Source: Halomicronema hongdechloris C2206 (GTDB lineage Bacteria; Cyanobacteriota; Cyanobacteriia; Phormidesmidales; Phormidesmidaceae). Taken from it: DNA of 32,000 nt. Under the pieces are notes generated by a model, which was not told where the DNA came from, ran no database searches, and worked only from the letters and a program-made list of their open reading frames with translations. The DNA lies in assembly GCF_002075285.3 (NCBI RefSeq), contig NZ_CP021983.2, positions 3,510,001 to 3,542,000 of the forward strand, given 5' to 3'. How positions within the stretch are numbered: the first letter of the stretch is position 1; each line of letters starts with the position of its first letter. This document shows positions 3,313 through 32,000 of the stretch, piece by piece. The position numbers and the translations under genes are program-made.

Positions 3313-4251
3313 CTATGCATCTGCATCCGGCAGAATTAGTAGACTAATCTGCCCTAGTCTGGCCTCTACCTGAGTGTCTACCACCAGGGCACTGAGTTGG
3401 GTTGGCTCGAGAACATCTAGGGTGAGGGTATCGGCATAGCCATTGAGTACCACCCAGGCGATAGTCGTCTCAACGCCGGTTTTGTGCAGGATGAACTGGC
3501 CGCCGTGCAACCACACCAGCACCCAGGGCTCGGGCTCGAATTGGCTATTGCCAAAGCAGCTCACGCCCCCCTTCTCGATACCGATTAAATAGGTGCCCGG
3601 CACCAGGGAGGTGGTAGTGGCTACCTGTTCTAAACTAGATGTTTGCTCGGCATCTAGGCCATAGCTGTGCTGTTGGCTATCGATGGTGAGGTGCTGTTGG
3701 CAGCCTACCCGGAGTGGAGTCCTCGGCAGGGATGGGGCTGGGGGAAAGGAGGCGGGCTCAACCGGAGCGGATATCGCCTCGGGGGCATCAGTGGCATGGG
3801 CGGACTCAGTGACCTCGGTAATCGAGGCCCGTTGATGGAGAGACCGCACCAACCCATGCCACTGGCCCTCGGGGGTGTAGTAGCCTAACTCGGCCACATA
3901 GTCGCGCTCTCCGACAGGAGCGGTGATTCGCAGGGATGAGAGTCCTTCACAGGGATAGTCATAGACCGCGTGGGCGGGTTGTCGATCTAGGTCAATGGCG
4001 GTGGCGTCATAGAGGCGCAGGCCGAGAGGCAGCTTGCGATCGCATAGGGTTGCCCGCACGAGATCGGGCAGGGTCCACTGGGCCAGTAAGACTTGCTGGG
4101 GCTGGGCCACAAGGCTGAGGCTAGCGGCTGAGGCAGCCTGTCGCAACTCGGGGCTGTCGGCCCAAACGGAAGGTTGATCTACCTGGTCGGCCCCGGGCAG
4201 AGATTTCCTCTGGCGCCACGATGGGCTCAGTAGTGTTGTCTGCAACCTCAA
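3313..4251 (-). CDS. hypothetical protein: DUF4912-like unit plus conserved C-terminal beta-rich domain (CTD copy 1)
   Basis: 'LRLYDATAIDLDRQPAH...ERDYVAELGYYTPEGQWHGLVRS' repeats the unit in ORF 4121-4762. The last ~125 aa ('PGTYLIGIEKGG...EPEPWVLVWLHGGQFILHKTGVE...VLNGYADTLTLDVLEPTQL') recur at 6403-6790 and 5952-6350. The listed start lies inside the upstream ORF, so this may be the 3' part of a longer broken gene. Confidence 0.7.
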   Translation of the reverse strand: MRLQTTLLSPSWRQRKSLPGADQVDQPSVWADSPELRQAASAASLSLVAQPQQVLLAQWTLPDLVRATLCDRKLPLGLRLYDATAIDLDRQPAHAVYDYPCEGLSSLRITAPVGERDYVAELGYYTPEGQWHGLVRSLHQRASITEVTESAHATDAPEAISAPVEPASFPPAPSLPRTPLRVGCQQHLTIDSQQHSYGLDAEQTSSLEQVATTTSLVPGTYLIGIEKGGVSCFGNSQFEPEPWVLVWLHGGQFILHKTGVETTIAWVVLNGYADTLTLDVLEPTQLSALVVDTQVEARLGQISLLILPDADA

Positions 4252-4762
4252 GGGCAGACTCGGAGGGAGCCGTCGGAGCGGCTATGCGGGCATGCAGGGA
4301 GCGCCCCAGACGAATCCAGTGGTGCTCGGCATCGGTGCAGCCCAACTCGGCCACATAGTCGCGGTCATAGGCGGCCACCTGAATCGGTAGGGTCCCCGAT
4401 ATCCCGGCAACGGGGATAGTTTGGGTGTGATGGGGAGGCTGATGATCGAGATCGATGGCGGTGGCATCATGCAGCTTTAGCACCAGGGGAACTGCTGCCA
4501 GGCGCGCCGCCGCCTGCGCTGGGTCTGAAAAGGTCCAGGTCACCGCCCAGGCGTCCGTGGCCAGGGGCTGTAGGGCGATCTGAGCCGTTGGCCAGGGGGA
4601 ATCTGGGGATTGGGGTTCCCCTGCCGGGGGCGAATCACCTGCGTCTGCTGGGGCAGCCGCGGCAGCGGCCAGACCGCCGGCCAGGGCTGCCCCCTGAGTA
4701 TCCATCCGCGCTGGGGCAGGGGGAGGCTCCGCTGGAGGACTCTCAGGCGATGGCTCAGCCAC
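4121..4762 (-). CDS. hypothetical protein: Pro/Ala/Glu-rich linker plus DUF4912-like unit
   Basis: 'LVLKLHDATAIDLDHQPPH...YDRDYVAELGCTDAEHHWIRLGRS'. This frame stays open upstream to about 5085 and reads as a P/A/E/T-rich linker, so the GTG at 4762 is probably not the real start. Confidence 0.6.
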   Translation of the reverse strand: MAEPSPESPPAEPPPAPARMDTQGAALAGGLAAAAAAPADAGDSPPAGEPQSPDSPWPTAQIALQPLATDAWAVTWTFSDPAQAAARLAAVPLVLKLHDATAIDLDHQPPHHTQTIPVAGISGTLPIQVAAYDRDYVAELGCTDAEHHWIRLGRSLHARIAAPTAPSESALEVADNTTEPIVAPEEISARGRPGRSTFRLGRQPRVATGCLSR

Positions 4763-4958
4763 TGCCTCTGGGGCAGGGATAGACTCGGTTGCAGTGTCTT
4801 CAGGTGCGGGACTGGTGGATACGGCGGTGGTGAGGGGCAGATCTGCCCCAGCAGCAGTGGATGCTGGAGGAGAGGCTGGGCTGGAGCCAGAAATAGTAGC
4901 ATCTGCATTGACATCTGCATCTGCTTCCGGAGCAGATGTTGCCGCCGAGGTCGGTGTC

Positions 4959-5867
4959 TCAGCCCTGGAGACTCGGCCCCTGGAGACTCGGCCCCTGGAG
5001 ACTCGGCCCTGGAGGGCTGTAGGAGAGCGGTGCCTGAGTTGAGGGGGCGGACCGGCGACTCCGCCACAGCCAGTAGAGCAGCGGCAGGCCTAGCAGTGGC
5101 AACAGTAGCCACCACCACTGCCCAGGGGAAGTATCTGCCGTTGGGGCTTCGGCAGTGGTGCCTGGAGCCGTCGACACCGGATCGTCTGGGCCAGGGCCGG
5201 TGGGTTCAGGGGCAGTCTCTTCGCCGGGGTCTGGGGGCTGGGAGGTCGGGGGCTCCGCCTCTGAGGTGTCGCTGCCGCCCTCACCGGCAGCTGCCTCATC
5301 GGCGGTTGCTAAGCCAGCGTCTCCCGACGCTGGCGTTGACGCTAGGGCCTGGTCGATGGCCTCGCGGTTGAGGGGATCGGTGGCGACGCCGAAGAAGGCC
5401 CGCAGCACCGGATCAGGGTCAGGACCTGCATAGACATAGGCGAGGTTCCCCTGGATGGGATGCGATCGCAACCCCTGCAGCCGCTCTTGGGGCGTCAACG
5501 GCCGCTGCACCGCGGCTAAATCTAGGGTACCAGCGGCGACGGCAGCCAAGGCAGCGTCGGGGGCGAGGGTGACCAGATCTACCGTGGTGCCAGGATATTG
5601 CTGGGTAAAGGCCCTGCCCAACTGCTGATTGAGACTGGCCAGGGTATCGCTGCCACCAATACGTAGGGTGGTACCCTGCAGAGTCTCCCTGGCGGTGGGT
5701 GGTGATTCCCCTGCAGCTGCCTCGGGTTCGGCGGACTCTGGCACCACCAGATAGGTGTTATCGGAGGCCAGGACAACGGTCCTCACCCCCCCAAACGGAA
5801 TGGTAGACAGCGACAGCAATAGTCCAATGGCGACAGGACGTTGCCCTAGCGACCACCCATGTCCCAT
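4959..5867 (-). CDS. secreted/membrane protein with truncated PstS-like (PBP type 2) domain, acidic linker and TM helix
   Basis: N-terminal hydrophobic segment 'RPVAIGLLLSLSTIPFGG'. 'LRIGGSDTLASLNQQL...LDLAAVQRPLTPQE' aligns with paralog 7545-8690. TM 'WWWLLLPLLGLPLLYWLW' is followed by RSRRS. The ORF ends in (GPSLQ)x3 created by a 15-bp repeat. Confidence 0.7.
   Translation of the reverse strand: MGHGWSLGQRPVAIGLLLSLSTIPFGGVRTVVLASDNTYLVVPESAEPEAAAGESPPTARETLQGTTLRIGGSDTLASLNQQLGRAFTQQYPGTTVDLVTLAPDAALAAVAAGTLDLAAVQRPLTPQERLQGLRSHPIQGNLAYVYAGPDPDPVLRAFFGVATDPLNREAIDQALASTPASGDAGLATADEAAAGEGGSDTSEAEPPTSQPPDPGEETAPEPTGPGPDDPVSTAPGTTAEAPTADTSPGQWWWLLLPLLGLPLLYWLWRSRRSAPSTQAPLSYSPPGPSLQGPSLQGPSLQG
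4964..5008. repeat. 15-bp perfect tandem repeat x3 (cctggagactcggcc) inside coding sequence
   Basis: Units at 4964-4978, 4979-4993 and 4994-5008. Depending on frame they read GPSLQ, AESPG or GRVSR on the minus strand. Confidence 0.9.
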
Positions 5868-5951
5868 AGTCCGGTCTCCCTAGCGTGGCATCTCAGCAAA
5901 ACAGTTTGACTCCCATGACAGCCCTACTCGGCTCGGGGGCTGGGACAGCGT

Positions 5952-25868: not shown

Positions 25869-27848
25869 CTAGGGGGCTTGGTCCTGCCATTCTTGCAGCC
25901 GCAGTTGGGCCTGGGCATAGGCTTCAGTGCGGGGTGGGATGCGTTGGGCAATTGCGATCGCACGGTTCAGGTCATAGCGGGCCTCGGTCTCGGCCACCCG
26001 CAGTAGATCCCAACTCCACTGGTTGGCGGCCCCCACTGCCGCAGCCGACTCACTGCTGTCAGCCGGTATCTGTTGGGCCAGATCGATAGCCTCCACCAGG
26101 GCATCTACGGTACCCTGCTGAGCCACCTGATAGGCCCGTTGCAACTGCTGTTGTCCCTGTACTTTGCGACGCCAGGCCTGAATCTCACCCTGAGCTTCAT
26201 CGTAGAGCACCCGGCCGGCCCCGATCCGGGCAGCCACCGTCACCGCCTCCGAGTATCGTCCAGCGTTGGCCAACTGCCGCGCCTGCCGCAATAGGGGCTC
26301 ATCTTCCTGCCGCTGAATTTGGGCAGTCCACTGATCAATTTGATCTTGGGCCTCACGGTAGAGGACTCGCCCCGGCTCAATCCGCCTCGCTTCTTGGATA
26401 GCCGTCCGTAGGGCCTGTAGATCGCCCCCCCGGGCCAGCCCCTTAGCCCGCTCTAAGATCGGCCCATCCTCAATGGTTTCAATCTGCCGCTGCCAGCGGT
26501 CGATTTGGCGCTCAGCCTCAGACCAAGCAGGGCTAGTGCGGGAAATCTGATCGGCCTCTGAGATGGCTGCCCGCAAATCACTGACAGTACCTGGATCAGC
26601 CAAGCGCCGGGCCCACTCCAGCTTAGACAGCCCCTCGATTTGACTCTGCCAGCGCTGCATTAAGCCCTGGGCGCGAGCATAGAGGGGCTGATCCTGACCG
26701 ATACTTTGTAACCGCTGAATCCCGGCTTCTAACCCTGCCACCGTATCTCGCCAGGCCAACTCATAGGCCTGGATAATCACATAGAAGTCGCTAATCTCCG
26801 CCCGCAGACCAGCCTCCCGGGGCACGAGGTTGAGTAGCTGAGTGGCGGTACTGGCATCTTCCCGCTTCAGTGCCGCTTCCGCAGCATCTAGGACCTCCCG
26901 GCCCAATTGCCGCAGCACCCGTTGGGCCTCACGGTGTAGGGGGCTGTCTGGATCGATGGAGGCAACTAATTTGAAGGCTTCCTGGAACCCTTCCAAGGTG
27001 CCGCGCTGGCCCAGACGACGAGCTTGCCCCAGGCGATTTAGGTCTTGGCGGGCCTGGGAAATCAATTGAGTCAGGGCTTCGTACTGGGTGGTTTCCCAGT
27101 AGTCATTACCCACAGAGAGTAGCTGAGTCGCCTTGGCGAAGGCTTCCCGGAAGTTTTTCTGCTCTAGCTCAGCTTGGGCTGCTTCATAGATGGCTTCCGC
27201 CTCTTCCCAAGTCTCCTTCCAGCGGCTAACCCGAGTCCGAACTTGCTGAGCCGCACTAGTGTCCTGGGGGATGCGCTGGGCAATGGCGATGGCCTGATCC
27301 AATTTTCCCTGGTGAAAGGTCTGCTCGGCCAGATCGAGAATTTGCTCGGCCCAGACTTCGATGCGCTCGTTAATCTCGGCTCGCAGGGGATGATCCTGGG
27401 GCAGGCCGTCGATCAGATCAATAGCTGCCAGCAGGCTGTCTACTTCACCCTGGGCGGCATAGGCATCGGCACACTGCAGCCGGGTTGAGGCGGAAGCAGT
27501 CGGCCAAAAAATGGCTCGGCAATTGGGCAGATTAGGGATACGAAACAGGCTGACAGCAGAGACAGCCCCCAAGCCAGCGAAGATAACAACTACCGTTAGA
27601 GCCGAGAGTTGCCAGTGGCGAGCTAGACGCTGCCAGAGAGAAGAGGAGTCGGAGGGAACAGGAGGAGCGGAATGCATTTGGCGATGTAGGCGGGCTATTT
27701 CGTCGCTGCCAGAGGTGTGGAGACGAGGGGCAGATGACGGCACCGTATAGGTTGAGCTGAGTCGCTGAGCCTTCCGAGGGCTGGGCCGCCGATGAGTGTC
27801 ACCGGCAGACCAATGGGCAGAATCACGGCGGTTGGACATAGAGATCAA
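25869..27848 (-). CDS. membrane-anchored helical-repeat protein, hypothetical
   Basis: 659 aa. Single TM 'LSALTVVVIFAGLGAVSAVSLF' after a basic/Ser-rich N-terminus. About eight ~60-70-aa alpha-helical repeats follow, each with a recurring 'A...I..W......E' pattern. Confidence 0.85.
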   Translation of the reverse strand: MISMSNRRDSAHWSAGDTHRRPSPRKAQRLSSTYTVPSSAPRLHTSGSDEIARLHRQMHSAPPVPSDSSSLWQRLARHWQLSALTVVVIFAGLGAVSAVSLFRIPNLPNCRAIFWPTASASTRLQCADAYAAQGEVDSLLAAIDLIDGLPQDHPLRAEINERIEVWAEQILDLAEQTFHQGKLDQAIAIAQRIPQDTSAAQQVRTRVSRWKETWEEAEAIYEAAQAELEQKNFREAFAKATQLLSVGNDYWETTQYEALTQLISQARQDLNRLGQARRLGQRGTLEGFQEAFKLVASIDPDSPLHREAQRVLRQLGREVLDAAEAALKREDASTATQLLNLVPREAGLRAEISDFYVIIQAYELAWRDTVAGLEAGIQRLQSIGQDQPLYARAQGLMQRWQSQIEGLSKLEWARRLADPGTVSDLRAAISEADQISRTSPAWSEAERQIDRWQRQIETIEDGPILERAKGLARGGDLQALRTAIQEARRIEPGRVLYREAQDQIDQWTAQIQRQEDEPLLRQARQLANAGRYSEAVTVAARIGAGRVLYDEAQGEIQAWRRKVQGQQQLQRAYQVAQQGTVDALVEAIDLAQQIPADSSESAAAVGAANQWSWDLLRVAETEARYDLNRAIAIAQRIPPRTEAYAQAQLRLQEWQDQAP

Positions 27849-28427
27849 GGAGACACAGCGACAGGACTCGACGATGCCAACTTAAGCAAGACTTTTCTAG
27901 GATGAGGGGTGCTCTAAGACACCCTAAAACTCAGAAACAGTATAACGAGCCCCCCTGTAAACGCAATCATCTAGCAATATTTGCTGACAGAAGGCAAGGC
28001 CCAGCAGCAGGCAAGATAAGCCGTCGCTGCCGTCAGCCAGCCTCATATGTAAATATCCATCGGCAGGCGTAGAAATCTATCCGCAACGCCAGTTAAGGTC
28101 GGCAATCGGACTCGGTCTCTGCTGGCGTAGTAGGTTACTCAGGGCTTATTGCTCCTGGGGCAGGCGATTGCCGCCGTAGCATCAGCCATCAGGGAGAAGA
28201 CACCTGAGACGCTAGAGGAATTAGCTGCAACCGACCTGCTAAGGGGGGGAGAGCACATCCCCAGCCGAGAATCGCTGATCATTGGGGATTGGCTCGCTCG
28301 ACATTGCTCGTCTCCAATTCACAGCAAATAAGAGATATTGCCCGCCCAGTCGGCCCCGCCCAGTCAGAATGGATGCGCCAGAGCCCAGGACCTGGGTTGA
28401 CTGACAAACCTTTAACTCGGGGCGGTT

Positions 28428-28452
28428 AACCCGCGTAGGCGGGTTTTCTTTG
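28428..28452 (+). terminator. rho-independent terminator candidate with no obvious upstream gene
   Basis: aacccgc (28428-28434), loop gtag, gcgggtt (28439-28445), then ttctttg. Confidence 0.5.
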
Positions 28453-28500
28453 TATAGGCGCGGCTTCTAGCCACCAGCCATGAGGTTTTTGTCCGTCAAT

Positions 28501-28626
28501 CATCGCCGAGACTCTGGCAGTCATCGTCGAGACTCTGGCAGTCGTCGCTGATATCTGGAGTCTCGCGGTCGAGACTTAAACAGTCACCGCTGACACTCTG
28601 GTAGTCATTGTTGACACTCTCAATGC
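28501..28626. repeat. 21-bp tandem repeat, 6 progressively diverged units
   Basis: catcgccgagactctggcagt / catcgtcgagactctggcagt / cgtcgctgatatctggagtct / cgcggtcgagacttaaacagt / caccgctgacactctggtagt / cattgttgacactctcaatgc. Confidence 0.9.
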
Positions 28627-28784
28627 TTCAGGCGAATGGCATCGCAGACCTGATCCAACAGCGTCAGGCGGCCCGGCAGCAACGCGACTTTGTAAAGGCG
28701 GATGATATTCGCGATCAGTTAGCGACGGTGGGGATTACGGTGGTTGACCAAACCAATGGAGAAGTCCATTGGCATCGACAGTGA
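28623..28784 (+). pseudogene. cysS: orphan 3' fragment of cysteine--tRNA ligase (last ~50 codons only)
   Basis: 'MLQANGIADLIQQRQAARQQRDFVKADDIRDQLATVGITVVDQTNGEVHWHRQ*' matches the remembered CysRS C-terminal pattern I..LI.QR..AR....F..AD.IRD.L...GI...D...G..W.R. No catalytic part lies upstream. Confidence 0.7.
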
Positions 28785-28805
28785 ATCAACGATAGCGCCA
28801 ACAGC

Positions 28806-29828
28806 CTAACTATCTAGCGGACTTCGCACTCCCCGTCCACCCCGATTCAGCACATTCAAAGGCATTTCAGACCTGACAATGTTGTCTCGTGCTCTGAAAT
28901 ACGAAATACCTTTGGTATAGATCATGGTGGTTTTCACATCTTTGTGTCCCAACAATTCTTGAATGGTGCGGATGTCGTAGTCGTTTTCCAGCAGGTGAGT
29001 TGCAAAGCTATGGCGAAGGGTATGACAACTGACGCGCTTTTGCACACCAGCTTGCCTGACGGCTCGTTTGATGGCTCGCTGCAATCCACTCTCATGAAGG
29101 TGATGACGATGCACAATGCCACTACGCGGATCTTTGGAAAAGCGCTCTGCCGGAAATACAAACTGCCAAATCCATTCACAGTCCGCGTGAGGATATTTGT
29201 GCTCTAACGCAAAAGGTAGATAAACCGAACCATAGCCCTGCGCCAAGTCTTGTTGATGCAACTGTCAAACGCTTTGCAAATGCTGTTGGAAATCTTCGAT
29301 CAGGCTGGTTGGCAACATGGTGATGCGACTTTCGCCCCCTTTCGCATTTCTCACTGTGATTTGCTGTTGAGAAAAATCCAGGTCTTTGATGCGAAGCCGC
29401 AGTGCTTCATTGAGTCTCAAGCCGCTACCGTAAAGTAATTTGGCCACCAATTGATAGACACCCGAGAGGTTTTGTAGCACTTCTGTGGCCTCTGTCGGAG
29501 TGAGGACAGTCGGTAGATGACGCGATCGCTTAGCTCGCACCGCATTAACATCTATCCCCAAATCCTGCTTCAAAACCTGGCGGTAAAGAAAAACCACCGC
29601 ATTGAGCGCCTGGTTCTGCGTTGAAGCCGAGACCTTACCCACCACTGCTAGATGGGTCAAAAACGCCTCTAACTCAGCTCCTCCCATCTCAGCGGGATGC
29701 CGCTTTTGATGGAACAAGATGTAGCGGCGAATCCAATAAACGTAGGTTTGCTCAGTGCGATAGGAATAGTGCTTTAGTCGGATTTGGTCTCGAACTTGAT
29801 CCAGTAGTTTTCGAGGTTGAGCTTCCAT
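28806..29828 (-). pseudogene. intI: integron integrase (IntI), inactivated
   Basis: '[24 protein letters not shown]', '[12 protein letters not shown]' and '[14 protein letters not shown]' are present. So is the IntI-specific segment '[44 protein letters not shown]', and the tail '[14 protein letters not shown]'. There is an in-frame TGA at 29265-29267 and a 57-nt insertion right after the catalytic-Tyr motif. Confidence 0.85.
28858..28913. repeat. small palindromic insertion inside intI
   Basis: aaaggcatttcag (28858-28870) pairs with ctgaaat[acgaaat]accttt (28894-28913). An inner hairpin gacaa-tg-ttgtc is present. The insertion is in frame, adding '[19 protein letters not shown]' between MIYT and (H->N)VLNRGG. 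Confidence 0.7.
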
Positions 29829-29878
29829 CAGTGGTAGACACAGTACACATGTATCTATCTTCACTCATGTTCAGTGCA

Positions 29879-30059
29879 ATATACTGAGAAAACTCGGCAG
29901 ATATACTGAAACTTTCAGTATATCTACCTAACATGAGCGTACTATATGGACAGCTTGCTGCCTATCCACTGTATTAGGCAGGATATACTGCAAGCAATCA
30001 GCCTATCCACCCTGTTTGAGGTAGATATACTGCAACTGTCGATCTAATAAGAGTTGGAC
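29879..30059 (+). promoter_or_regulatory. attI-like region with ATATACTG iterons, ending at GTTGGAC
   Basis: ATATACTG occurs at 29879, 29901, 29983 and 30025 (direct) and at 29916-29923 (inverted). A 25-bp perfect palindrome lies at 29900-29924. Two 41-bp direct repeats lie at 29960-30000 and 30001-30041. A GTTRRRY match lies at 30053-30059. Confidence 0.55.
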
Positions 30060-30908
30060 AGCGCTCGAACACGATCGTGAAACGCACAGTGCCCGATGAG
30101 AGAAGTGCTATCTGAACACCTAGCCACGTTCATCCGGTCCCTCCCGGAGAAGCGCGAGTACGCCCGCGACGATCTTCTCGTTCCTGCGCTGAAGGTCGCC
30201 GAGGATGCCGACAAGGGGCTTGCCGTGTACGACGCTCCGTTCGGCTGGGGCAACCAAGAAGCGCGTGTGGCCCTGATTGGCGTGACGCCGGGTTTCACCC
30301 AGATGCAGATTCTCTATCGCGTAGTGCGGAGGCACCTCCTGTTGGGTGCGAGCCCCGAAGACGCTTGCAGGTTGGCCAAGTACGAAGCCAGCTTTGGTGG
30401 CACCATGCGCGGGAATCTCGTTCGGATGCTGGACGAGCTCGGGGTGCCGGAACTCCTCGAGGTCGCATCCACCGCCGATCTCTTTGGTTCCAGTTCCCAT
30501 CTTCTGCACACCACTTCGGCTGTTCGGTACCCGACGTTCCTCCACGGGCAGAACTACACTGGCAGTCAGCCGCGGCTCGTGAGGTCCGCCTTCTTGATGC
30601 GATACGTTCGGGACGTTCTTGCGCCGGAGCTGTCCCGGCTCCATGCTGCAGTCTTCGTTCCACTCGGCAAGAGCGTCGCCGAGGCCTTGGAGCTACTGGA
30701 GACCGAGCAGCGCATCCCGGCTGGTCGAACGCTACATGGATTCCCACATCCATCGGGCGCGAACGGTCACCGCGCGCGGCAATTCGAGAAGGGGAAGCCC
30801 GCGATGAGGCGGCGGTTCGAGGAGATCTTGTGTGGAGGTGCCTCGGCGGGCGCTGTCCAACAACAGCATGCAGCGGACGGCGCTGCGCGCCGCCGCTGAT
30901 GCCACACG
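30054..30908 (+). mobile_element. integron gene cassette (855 bp)
   Basis: It starts with TTGGAC after G30053 and ends at G30908 of GTTATGC. R'' GTCCAAC (30855-30861) is the exact complement of G+TTGGAC. In sampled 60-nt lines the interior is 62-65% GC against 37-43% in the flanks. Confidence 0.7.
30096..30899 (+). CDS. UDG-superfamily-like protein (uracil-DNA glycosylase fold), cassette-encoded
   Basis: Motif-A-like 'VALIGVTPGF' (compare GxxPG). 'ASFGGTMRGNLVRMLDELGV', 'LLHTTSAVRYP' and 'VFVPLGKSVAEAL' follow. Motif-B-like 'HGFPHPSGANG' (compare HPS). The motif order fits the UDG fold. This is from memory and was not searched. Confidence 0.55.
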   Translation: MREVLSEHLATFIRSLPEKREYARDDLLVPALKVAEDADKGLAVYDAPFGWGNQEARVALIGVTPGFTQMQILYRVVRRHLLLGASPEDACRLAKYEASFGGTMRGNLVRMLDELGVPELLEVASTADLFGSSSHLLHTTSAVRYPTFLHGQNYTGSQPRLVRSAFLMRYVRDVLAPELSRLHAAVFVPLGKSVAEALELLETEQRIPAGRTLHGFPHPSGANGHRARQFEKGKPAMRRRFEEILCGGASAGAVQQQHAADGAARRR

Positions 30909-30914
30909 TTATGC
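30855..30914 (+). other. attC-like recombination site (60 bp)
   Basis: GTCCAAC-aaca-gcatGcagcgg-a-cggcg-ctgcg-cgccg-ccgctgatgc-cacac-GTTATGC. It has 10+5 paired positions with two unpaired bases (G30870, A30877) on the R''/L'' arm. It overlaps the ORF stop at 30897-30899. Confidence 0.6.
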
Positions 30915-30976
30915 GGCTTTAACTTTTGGTGGTGAGACGGTATTTGAAGGCTACTGACTAGATGATGCGAGTTTAG

Positions 30977-31023
30977 AAAAGTCATGGTGAGATAGATCGC
31001 TCTTAGCGAGGAATATGACTTTT
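30977..31023 (-). terminator. hairpin between convergent genes, likely terminator of the WYL gene
   Basis: aaaagtcat (30977-30985) / atgactttt (31015-31023) form a 9-bp stem with an inner tcgct-ctt-agcga. On the minus strand it is followed by ttttct. Confidence 0.45.
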
Positions 31024-31030
31024 GTATAGG

Positions 31031-31876
31031 TTATGTTAAAAAGTTGTAGTGCTCACAAAGCTTCTTCAACTTGCTTATTAATTGATTTTGTACGCTTGCA
31101 GGAGATAAAACTAGACATTCTTCCCCATAACGTAGGATCTCTCGAATAAACCAGAATGTATTTGATACACGTCTAACTATGTAGCGAGCATCGTCCTTTA
31201 CCTCATTGGTTATGTCATCTGGTTTAGGTTCATAAGCTTTTACCAACCTTCCCAATACTTGTAAGTGCACTTCGATATATTCAAGCCGATCTTGCCAACT
31301 GCCACTTGCTGGCAAGACGTTGATAATTCTATCTAAACGGAAGCAACGGTTATGGATTAGCTCGGGTAGATTCAAGCTACCCTCCGTTTCCTCACACCAT
31401 GCTTCTAGATAGAATCGCTTTTCCCAAAAGCGAATTTCGCCGTAGCGAACGGTAAATTCCATCTGTTTGTTTTGAGAGTCTTCATAAAACAGATGAAAAG
31501 GCTGTTTAGCTTTAATTTGCTGATCAATGACTCTACGCCATGATTCAGTAGGATGACTAACTTGTTCCAGCAGTGCCTGGCGTAAAGGTGTCTCTAAATT
31601 GCCATGTTCTAGTAGGAAAAGGGCCAAAGTCTGTGCATCGGCAATATGACCAGAATCAACCAATAGTCTTATAGCTTGTCTGATGGCTGTATTTTGACTT
31701 GGGTCAAGTGCAAGTACACTGCCAACCTCAAGTTGGTGTTGAGCGATCGCCACGACTAACCCTGAAATACTGGGTTTATCGCCCCACATAATGCCTAAGC
31801 CATCAGCTATTGCCTCTAACTGCTCTTTAGTTCCAGGTGGGATGGAAAGTGTGATTGTCTCCTTTCTACGCGCCAT
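31031..31876 (-). CDS. ribbon-helix-helix + WYL-domain transcriptional regulator
   Basis: The N-terminus 'KETITLSIPPGTKEQLEAIADGLG' is RHH/CopG-like. The WYL core is 'FTVRYGEIRFWEKRFYLEAWCEE...HNRCFRLDRIINV'. A C-terminal extension follows. Sampled lines give ~38-40% GC. Confidence 0.75.
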   Translation of the reverse strand: MARRKETITLSIPPGTKEQLEAIADGLGIMWGDKPSISGLVVAIAQHQLEVGSVLALDPSQNTAIRQAIRLLVDSGHIADAQTLALFLLEHGNLETPLRQALLEQVSHPTESWRRVIDQQIKAKQPFHLFYEDSQNKQMEFTVRYGEIRFWEKRFYLEAWCEETEGSLNLPELIHNRCFRLDRIINVLPASGSWQDRLEYIEVHLQVLGRLVKAYEPKPDDITNEVKDDARYIVRRVSNTFWFIREILRYGEECLVLSPASVQNQLISKLKKLCEHYNFLT

Positions 31877-32000
31877 TTTAGTTATACTTGCACCTTTCAG
31901 GAAATGTCGTTAGTATACATATATAGTCCATTCTCTCAAAATCTTACCTGAGTTTACTCAATTGTATCACCGTCTCAGTGAGGGATTCCCAGCATTACCC

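Follow-up and report, generated by a model that had tools for sequence, protein, structure and literature searches.

Introduction

Sedentary chromosomal integrons in which intI is inactivated and which occupy a conserved chromosomal site, such as those located next to ilvD in Xanthomonas, are known, and integrons in general have been surveyed in several studies (PMC4889954, PMC3108266, PMC12444791). The locus analysed here lies at the right-hand end of a 32-kb stretch of the chromosome of Halomicronema hongdechloris C2206, referred to below as the window, whose coordinates are used throughout and whose right edge at position 32000 falls approximately 1.1 kb past the gene cassette in question. 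It resembles the sedentary chromosomal integrons in an integrase gene (intI) that encodes the IntI-specific domain and diverges from the attachment site attI and the cassette array, in a housekeeping gene as neighbour (here cysS, in the related loci L006 and L087), in an apparently inactivated integrase, here by a nonsense mutation plus an indel, in a non-resistance cassette, and in the presence of several integrons per genome. It differs from them in its cyanobacterial host, in a cysS anchor reduced to a 47-codon remnant, in its one visible cassette, and in what seems to be a very recent inactivation of intI (ratio of nonsynonymous to synonymous substitution rates, dN/dS, of 0.06). Integrons in Cyanobacteria, genomes with several integrons, relics of the In0 and CALIN classes and a frequent inactivation of intI have been documented before (PMC4889954, PMC3108266). 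Our search of the literature yielded no paper linking H. hongdechloris with integrons, and the locus is not described there.

The class 1 integron, with IntI1, attI1 and attC sites of the 59-base-element kind, may also be compared. The integrase of the window is 53% identical to IntI1, the crossover takes place at G↓TT, and the stop codon of the cassette gene lies inside attC. Like the 60-bp attC sites of the class 1 aadA type, the site in the window has 60 nt and consists of R'', a spacer of 4-5 nt, an L stem that carries two bulges at a distance of 7 nt, a loop of 3 nt and R'. In contrast to class 1 integrons, however, the window has no Tn402/Tn21 context, no 3' conserved segment (3'-CS) and no resistance cargo, the extrahelical base of L'' is a bottom-strand C and not a G, the attI sequence is unrelated except for its L-spacer-R layout, and intI is a pseudogene.

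Within the classes used by IntegronFinder (PMC4889954), the locus would be placed on a continuum of integron decay together with In0 and CALIN elements, on which the related locus L095 has lost intI and keeps attI. The window differs from In0 by the presence of an attC site and does not qualify as CALIN, which requires a minimum of two attC sites together with the absence of intI, while it would belong to the complete integrons only on condition that its C-terminal intI fragment counts as IntI.

From the letters of the sequence, the original prediction had proposed a decayed chromosomal integron with one cassette. Our analysis leads to the conclusion that the locus is, with high probability, a chromosomal integron with a recently broken intI and one genuine mobile cassette, encoding a protein similar to uracil-DNA glycosylases (UDG), integrated at attI. 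This conclusion is carried by the identity of the integrase, its two lesions, the attC site, both cassette junctions and the mobility of the cassette family between arrays. The integrase model, the covariance match of attC and the junction breakpoints all hold, and none of the tests that had been proposed to refute the integron did so.

Results and Discussion

The cassette, its junctions and its attC site

The features on which the argument mainly rests are the following.

30054 to 30908, plus strand: integrated gene cassette of 855 nt, beginning with TTGGAC and ending on the first base (G) of the R' box, with homology breakpoints on both sides
30855 to 30914, plus strand: attC of 60 nt, matched over the full length of covariance model R1 (47.8 bits, E 4e-10), with a predicted fold and with covariation in its family
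30855 to 30861, plus strand: R'' box of attC, GTCCAAC
30866 to 30883 paired with 30887 to 30902, plus strand: L''/L' stem of attC
30870 (G on the top, C on the bottom strand) and 30877 (A on the top, T on the bottom strand): extrahelical bases of attC according to the fold
30884 to 30886: terminal loop of attC, 3 nt
30908 to 30914, plus strand: hybrid R' box of attC, GTTATGC, with the crossover between G30908 and T30909

The strongest evidence for an integron cassette is provided by the breakpoints of homology at the two junctions. On the left side, the loci L087 (IntI 88% identical) and L007 (80%) share their sequence with the window up to G↓TT (30053/30054) and then continue with other cassettes, whose first bases past the crossover are TTGGCC... 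and TTAGAC..., respectively. On the metagenome contig L005, whose array is unrelated to that of the window, the fourth of several co-oriented cassettes holds a copy of the cassette ORF with 82% amino acid identity, and the cassettes upstream and downstream of it are different ones. DNA homology between L005 and the window starts exactly at G↓TTGGAC, where the G in L005 is the end of the attC of the previous cassette, and it stops at the G of the R' box (G30908), after which L005 reads TTGGGC... and the window TTATGC.... Both ends of the unit 30054-30908 that had been predicted are thus independent homology breakpoints, and no relative contains this segment as part of a longer collinear block across the junctions.

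The short core strings had been placed correctly, with GTTGGAC at 30053-30059, GTCCAAC at 30855-30861 and GTTATGC at 30908-30914. As predicted, the first six nucleotides of the cassette pair with R'', given that TTGGAC following G30053 is the exact reverse complement of the corresponding part of GTCCAAC. The pairing even extends to 15 nt, 12 of them perfect, between 30053-30067 and 30847-30861.

The cassette family is not confined to the window and L005. As a cassette with a 60-nt attC, the UDG-like gene is also present in L097/L098, where the flanking attC sites are matched with 25, 37 and 35 bits, and decayed copies were found in L001 and L096. From this distribution, the family evidently moves between arrays. 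The decayed UDG-like cassette in L001 (609-1497 and 2100-2990), with the R'' box GTCCGAC and a degenerate R', lies by a ParE/RelB toxin-antitoxin pair and adjoins polyamine-biosynthesis genes; this stretch resembles what is left at the end of a different array.

To search for attC sites, we trained a covariance model, R1, on 16 sites that belong to other arrays (contig L005 and the flanks of IntI relatives in genomes), from which the site of the window and its homologues were left out; 18 attC candidates obtained by a hand-written heuristic served as seeds for the model and were not used as evidence. When applied to the 32-kb window with filters off, this model, which emulates the IntegronFinder test suggested beforehand, returned one significant match, located precisely at the predicted coordinates on the plus strand, while the next best match reached 13 bits. 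Over 86 loci it identified 78 sites, and in the loci fetched via their IntI all but one match lay on the strand opposite intI, in keeping with cassette arrays diverging from intI. As positive controls, the genes aac(6')-Ib-cr, dfrA14 and blaOXA-1 of two class 1 integrons were used, and R1 detected the attC immediately 3' of each with 22-31 bits. In the alignment of the 78 sites, 92% of the helix cells are paired versus 25-44% with slid partners, and 191 cells are doubly changed versus 62 in shuffles.

An attC is known to fold as one strand in which the central spacer stays unpaired and an L stem ends in a terminal loop, with two to three bases standing out of the helix (extrahelical) along the R''-L'' arm (PMC2727003). 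Folding the bottom strand of 30855-30914, as had been recommended, gave a hairpin of -19.4 kcal/mol (z -2.8, DNA parameters); it is imperfect and overlaps the end of the ORF as claimed, with the stop codon TGA 30897-30899 in its 3' arm. The attC rejoined as at the junction of a circular cassette reaches -34.7 kcal/mol on the bottom strand (z -6.6), a value equalled by 0 of 200 shuffles, and its fold displays spacers of 3-5 nt and a loop of 3 nt, while the R''-L'' arm bears two bulges of a single base each, separated by 7 nt. The spacers of the attC itself measure 4 and 5 nt. The resident R' box GTTATGC is a hybrid and deviates by one base from the RRR of GTTRRRY, which is why a strict RYYYAAC...GTTRRRY pattern misses the site. 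Given that the full architecture of an IntI substrate is present, the folded bottom strand of 30855-30914 should in principle still be a substrate of IntI.

The attachment site and the extent of the array

Left and right of the cassette, the following features were recognized.

29829 to 30053: intergenic region between intI and attI, which comprises presumed divergent promoters, AGATATACTG repeats and a palindrome (29896-29928) and ends with the left half of attI
30036 to 30053: left half of attI, CTGTCGATCTAATAAGAG, with the L-box-like ATCTAAT at 30042-30048, ending at the crossover G 30053
30909 to 31019: sequence after the crossover, either backbone preceded by the ancestral right half of attI, or the beginning of another cassette that was truncated
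31031 to 31876, minus strand: gene of a WYL/WCX-domain regulator (Pfam WCX and WYL, PADLOC WYL), the only gene in the right flank with its GC content of 41.7%

The region between intI and attI is 86% identical to L087 over 189 nt and partly to L007, and the identity stops at G↓TT. Both relatives share attI up to ...TCTAATAA(G/AT)AG↓TT, confirming the left half ...CTGTCGATCTAATAAGAG of the proposed attI core. The proposed right half, TTATGC, is less certain. The reconstructed empty site GTCGATCTAATAAGAGTTATGC, a 22-mer, has one exact match in the metagenome collection, namely in L095 (ERZ1740065...NODE-24175, 511-700), whose attI region is 80% identical to that of the window and has the sequence ...AATAAGAG↓TTATGC; an ORF resembling a TIR domain comes next. 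This match weakly suggests that TTATGC is the ancestral right half of attI; however, the DNA after TTATGC is unrelated between L095 and the window, and GTTATGC accounts for 9 of the 78 R' boxes in these arrays (12%). No attC was found in the short stretch of L095 remaining after attI. The same locus keeps attI but has lost intI altogether (it has no counterpart of window 28792-29881), which indicates a recurrent loss of the integrase in this lineage.

Within the intergenic region, AGATATACTG occurs at 29899, 29916 (minus strand), 29981 and 30023 with at most one mismatch, and two of these copies form the palindrome 29896-29928. Under the same threshold there are three copies in L087 and two in L007, compared to a background of 0.014 per 260 nt, and the motif recurs approximately 70 nt from the start of intI in L012, L037 and L073. 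The repeats might serve as -10 elements, as an operator or as accessory sites for IntI. A LexA box at the palindrome was considered and dropped, since its CTG-N7-CAG spacing does not fit an E. coli-type LexA box and since L087 and L007 have an imperfect version of the palindrome. Cyanobacterial LexA motifs are also known to differ (PMC3108266).

The extent of the array is the point at which the competing interpretation of greatest weight arises. The integron might have been truncated or interrupted right of 30908, in which case TTATGC would be the first six nucleotides of a lost or decayed cassette, or DNA joined by rearrangement, instead of the right half of attI. We regard this as a possibility of real weight, albeit on balance a doubtful one. 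It would account for the low GC content of the right flank, which is similar to that of the first cassette of L087 (40.9%), for the frequent use of GTTATGC as R' box, for a cassette of L005 that likewise begins TTATGCGGC, and for the unrelated sequences past attI in L095 and the window. The WYL regulator, which is not demonstrably part of the integron, has a homologue with 92% amino acid identity in islands of the filamentous cyanobacteria CCP1/CCP2 that resemble integrative and conjugative elements (ICE) and contain a tyrosine integrase, E1/E2/JAB, TrbI and TraC. The DNA shared with these islands is limited to 31020-31899 (88% nucleotide identity), an isolated gene-sized module whose flanks are not shared and whose neighbours differ, as would also be compatible with a truncated array. 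On the other hand, no second attC was detected on either strand of 30915-32000, even at E values up to 10 and with filters off, and L095 exhibits exactly the string predicted for the empty site. The sequence 30909-31019 contains no attC match and shows no similarity to any fetched locus. The statement that this is a single-cassette integron therefore holds for no more than the visible 1.1 kb up to position 32000, and the array as a whole may hold the UDG-like cassette alone.

The integrase gene and its lesions

The preferred interpretation, a chromosomal integron with one cassette at attI, further depends on the gene to the left of attI, with three features.

28806 to 29828, minus strand: intI pseudogene (integron integrase), 321 aa if both lesions are removed; TIGR02249, PF00589, PF13495
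29265 to 29267, minus strand: nonsense codon, an in-frame TGA at codon 188, normally a conserved Arg/Lys
28857 to 28913, minus strand: 57-nt (19-codon) in-frame insertion, identified in DNA alignment A6 against L006, L087 and L007

The two minus-strand ORFs 29265-29864 and 28806-29261 had been recognized as one reading frame, and they are indeed split by a single TGA and contain the IntI segment on which the assignment was based. The joined protein scored 451.6 bits with the NCBIfam model TIGR02249 'integron integrase' (cut-off 265), versus 127.6 bits with XerC (cut-off 335) and 127.3 bits with XerD (cut-off 330), and the Pfam domains PF00589 (Phage_integrase, 121 bits) and PF13495 (SAM-like, N-terminal, 115 bits) were detected. 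The enzyme is thus an IntI and not a recombinase of the XerC/D or phage type, in agreement with the prediction. The IntI-specific segment LPFALE...HHLHES aligns without gaps with seven IntI relatives. In alignment A2, the columns R138, K163, H269, R272, H295 and Y304, which presumably correspond to the catalytic R-K-H-R-H-Y of tyrosine recombinases, are invariant with the window sequence included. With P0121 and P0122, two proteins from TARA Oceans contigs, it shares 88-89% identity, and the identity to P0121 rises to 94% when the insertion is left out. The H. hongdechloris genome encodes two more IntI proteins, P0123 (83% identical) and P0184 (70%), both intact with 321 aa.

Two lesions interrupt the gene. 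Codon 188 is TGA in the window, CGA in L006 and L087, and AAA in L007. The 57-nt insertion is located between ...MIYT, which includes the catalytic Tyr, and HVLNRGG, and a neighbouring His is changed to Asn. It has hairpin potential according to the fold and contains no stop codon, and no second copy was detected in the window or in the loci L001-L086 (approximately 1.0 Mb). The insertion may be a miniature inverted-repeat transposable element (MITE) or a slippage product. In comparison with L006, intI has a dN/dS of 0.06 at a dS of 0.46, and of 141 highly conserved columns only three differ in its product, while 101 relatives deviate at 1.1 columns on average and at 7 at most. Given the low dN/dS and the small number of deviations, the gene appears to have been inactivated recently rather than eroded, and was under strong purifying selection until then. 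Of the term 'decayed' used in the original prediction, the break of intI by two lesions is retained, but the rest of the gene looks healthy.

The same observations could be taken to mean that the integrase still functions and that the integron is active, with the TGA being a sequencing error or read through and the 19-aa insertion being tolerated. An insertion that is in frame and free of stop codons, the presence of two lesions only, the low dN/dS, the almost intact conserved columns and the invariance of all six catalytic-position columns would be in line with this. We nevertheless consider an active enzyme quite improbable, since every relative examined has CGA or AAA at the codon bearing the TGA, none of 101 IntI relatives of 315-330 aa has an insertion after the catalytic Tyr, and the loss of intI is recurrent in the lineage, as illustrated by its outright deletion in L095. 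Inactivation of intI has moreover been reported to be common, with 43-46% (PMC3108266).

Weighing the interpretation

The 15-nt inverted repeat formed by 30053-30067 and 30847-30861 could also suggest that the GC-rich 855-bp segment is a small non-autonomous transposable element with terminal inverted repeats. This is very improbable and was rejected, because the foreign segment runs 47 nt beyond the right repeat to G30908, neither a transposase nor a target-site duplication is present, the repeats are the R'/R'' cores plus an extension of an attC verified by the covariance model, and the unit of ORF and attC is found between other attC-bounded cassettes in L005 and L097/L098. No copies of the segment at sites other than attI and attC with target duplications were seen. 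That there is no integron at all, and that a tyrosine recombinase of the Xer or phage type happens to lie beside an ordinary gene with a terminator hairpin, would be compatible with the generic Phage_integrase matches in Pfam, but is refuted to near certainty by the IntI-specific score far above and the Xer scores far below their cut-offs, by a hairpin that lacks a T-run, is not called as a terminator and matches the attC covariance model, and by the junction breakpoints in L005.

Some points weigh against the integron with a recently broken intI and one mobile cassette. A sigma-70-like promoter directed into the cassette was not found by a simple scan, which returned only a candidate directed into intI. 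The right end of the array may lie beyond the window, which stops at 32000. The TGA at codon 188 is a single-base change and could in principle be an assembly error; that the resident integrase is non-functional, and likewise that the 19-aa insertion affects its activity, is what we deduce from the sequence. Finally, the L'' extrahelical base on the bottom strand is a C and not the usually conserved G. Since the first extrahelical base is a top-strand G (bottom-strand C) in 71 of the 78 sites of this attC family (alignment A4, in which columns 19 and 28 are the extrahelical positions), the C at L'' is best regarded as a family trait and not as a defect. At the second extrahelical position, 77 of the 78 sites have the canonical T on the bottom strand, and class 1 sites reverse at the first one, with the bottom-strand G that the literature describes as conserved.

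For the integron as we understand it, the following history is proposed. A circular cassette consisting of the UDG-like ORF and its 60-nt attC would have entered by IntI-catalysed recombination of attI with attC, the latter as folded bottom strand. This insertion would have brought TTGGAC, which belongs to the cassette itself, to the left junction and produced the hybrid R' (G↓TTATGC) at the right. The integrase gene was hit by a CGA to TGA nonsense change and by the 57-nt insertion right after the catalytic tyrosine. Given that the resident enzyme is presumably inactive, the cassette would now be fixed unless one of the intact paralogues, P0123 or P0184, acts in trans. Transcription of the cassette would start from a promoter in the attI/intI region.

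The cargo gene

30096 to 30899, plus strand: cassette ORF of 267 aa, divergent and UDG-superfamily-like (XM38_033600), a 100% match to the H. hongdechloris C2206 protein

The product of the cassette gene is identical to XM38_033600, which is recorded on a 5.58-Mb contig. NCBI records it as a hypothetical protein only, and one UniRef name for it starts with 'Uracil DNA glycosyl...'. With the Pfam model UDG (PF03167) it reached 17.2 bits, which is under the gathering cut-off of 24.3, while some of its homologues carry a precomputed PF03167 match. Sequence profiles gave no match in the Protein Data Bank (PDB), and no PADLOC or NCBIfam family was matched. The AlphaFold2 (AF2) model is of high confidence (pLDDT 91.3), and the top 22 PDB matches obtained for it with Foldseek are all members of the UDG superfamily (UdgX, SMUG1, TDG, UNG), with a probability of up to 1.0, although the E value is only 2.5e-3 and the template modelling (TM) scores range from 0.38 to 0.47. 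Invariant G-x-T-P-G and H-P-S motifs are present, presumably at the places where two UDG signature motifs would be. A dN/dS of 0.22-0.30 among the cargo copies indicates purifying selection.

The likeness of the cargo to the UDG superfamily (UdgX/family 4, SMUG1, TDG-MUG) hence consists in a weak Pfam match and in the best PDB matches of a confident structural model, whereas the sub-cut-off Pfam score, the lack of a profile match in the PDB, the modest TM scores and an extra long C-terminal helix set it apart. Based on the modelled structure, the cargo is probably a divergent UDG-superfamily-like protein. The copies of this family occur in arrays and relics of very different GC content and neighbourhood, all with the conserved 60-nt attC. 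It is conceivable, although we consider it unlikely, that they represent an undescribed family of the UDG superfamily which spreads between phyla chiefly in the form of an integron cassette and has a role other than housekeeping repair, for example on modified or uracil-containing phage DNA.

Genomic setting

28641 to 28784, plus strand: 3' remnant of cysS, the last 47 codons plus stop, convergent with intI, at the left edge of the conserved integron block

The TARA relative L006 contains an intact cysS of 493 aa (1074-2555) convergent with intI, and when its product was used as a tblastn query, only residues 447-493 aligned in the window. The remnant matches Pfam CysS_C and NCBIfam cysS. In L095 (reverse strand, approximately 770-925), a cysS remnant with the same truncation point as in the window is present, but its left neighbour is a SelO-like gene. 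The left neighbours of the integron in the window are housekeeping genes (ARC6-like, PDH E1, SecDF, sulfite reductase), which, together with the size of the contig, would fit a chromosomal setting, yet the neighbours of the cysS remnant differ in L095 and the right flank contains a gene of the ICE-island type. Because of these two observations, the block of cysS remnant, attI and, where present, intI has been relocated or rearranged at least once. As a smaller possibility, this block, with one truncation point in two neighbourhoods (window and L095), may move as a unit by an unknown route. No transposase was found in the 28 kb left of the integron. The window contains no tRNA genes and thus no tRNA-linked island boundary, and Rfam gave no match at E values up to 0.1 over 27000-32000.

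A jump in GC content at the cassette edges had been part of the prediction. Locally, the GC fraction does climb from 0.39-0.48 to 0.59-0.68 at approximately 30060 and drops again past approximately 30910. With 63.3%, however, the cassette (30054-30908) is near the value of the host core (58.8% in window 1-27848), and the parts that stand out, by their low GC content, are intI with 48.7%, attI with 40.7% and the right flank.

Further observations concern the DNA left of the integron. The ORF of 659 aa at 25869-27848 (minus strand) is rich in repeated helical motifs of the Q/R/A type and has no Pfam match. It is separated from the cysS remnant by approximately 790 nt of non-coding DNA, in which a 21-nt tandem repeat with 5.2 copies and the consensus TCATCGCCGAGACTCTGGCAG is located at 28500-28608. 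A local GC peak of 65-68% at approximately 4000-5900 coincides with several long overlapping ORFs on both strands.

Conclusions

The locus exemplifies a familiar type of element in a clean yet ordinary form, and it changes no concept, given that cyanobacterial integrons, the inactivation of intI and non-resistance cassettes had already been established (PMC4889954, PMC3108266). It represents a well-documented cyanobacterial addition to the catalogue of chromosomal integrons, in which both cassette junctions were pinned to the base by independent comparison. The integrase seems to have been caught shortly after its inactivation, and the cassette is demonstrably common to other arrays, which makes the locus a useful example of textbook quality. 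With an attI, one attC and two intact paralogous IntI proteins in one genome, H. hongdechloris may offer a possible test substrate.

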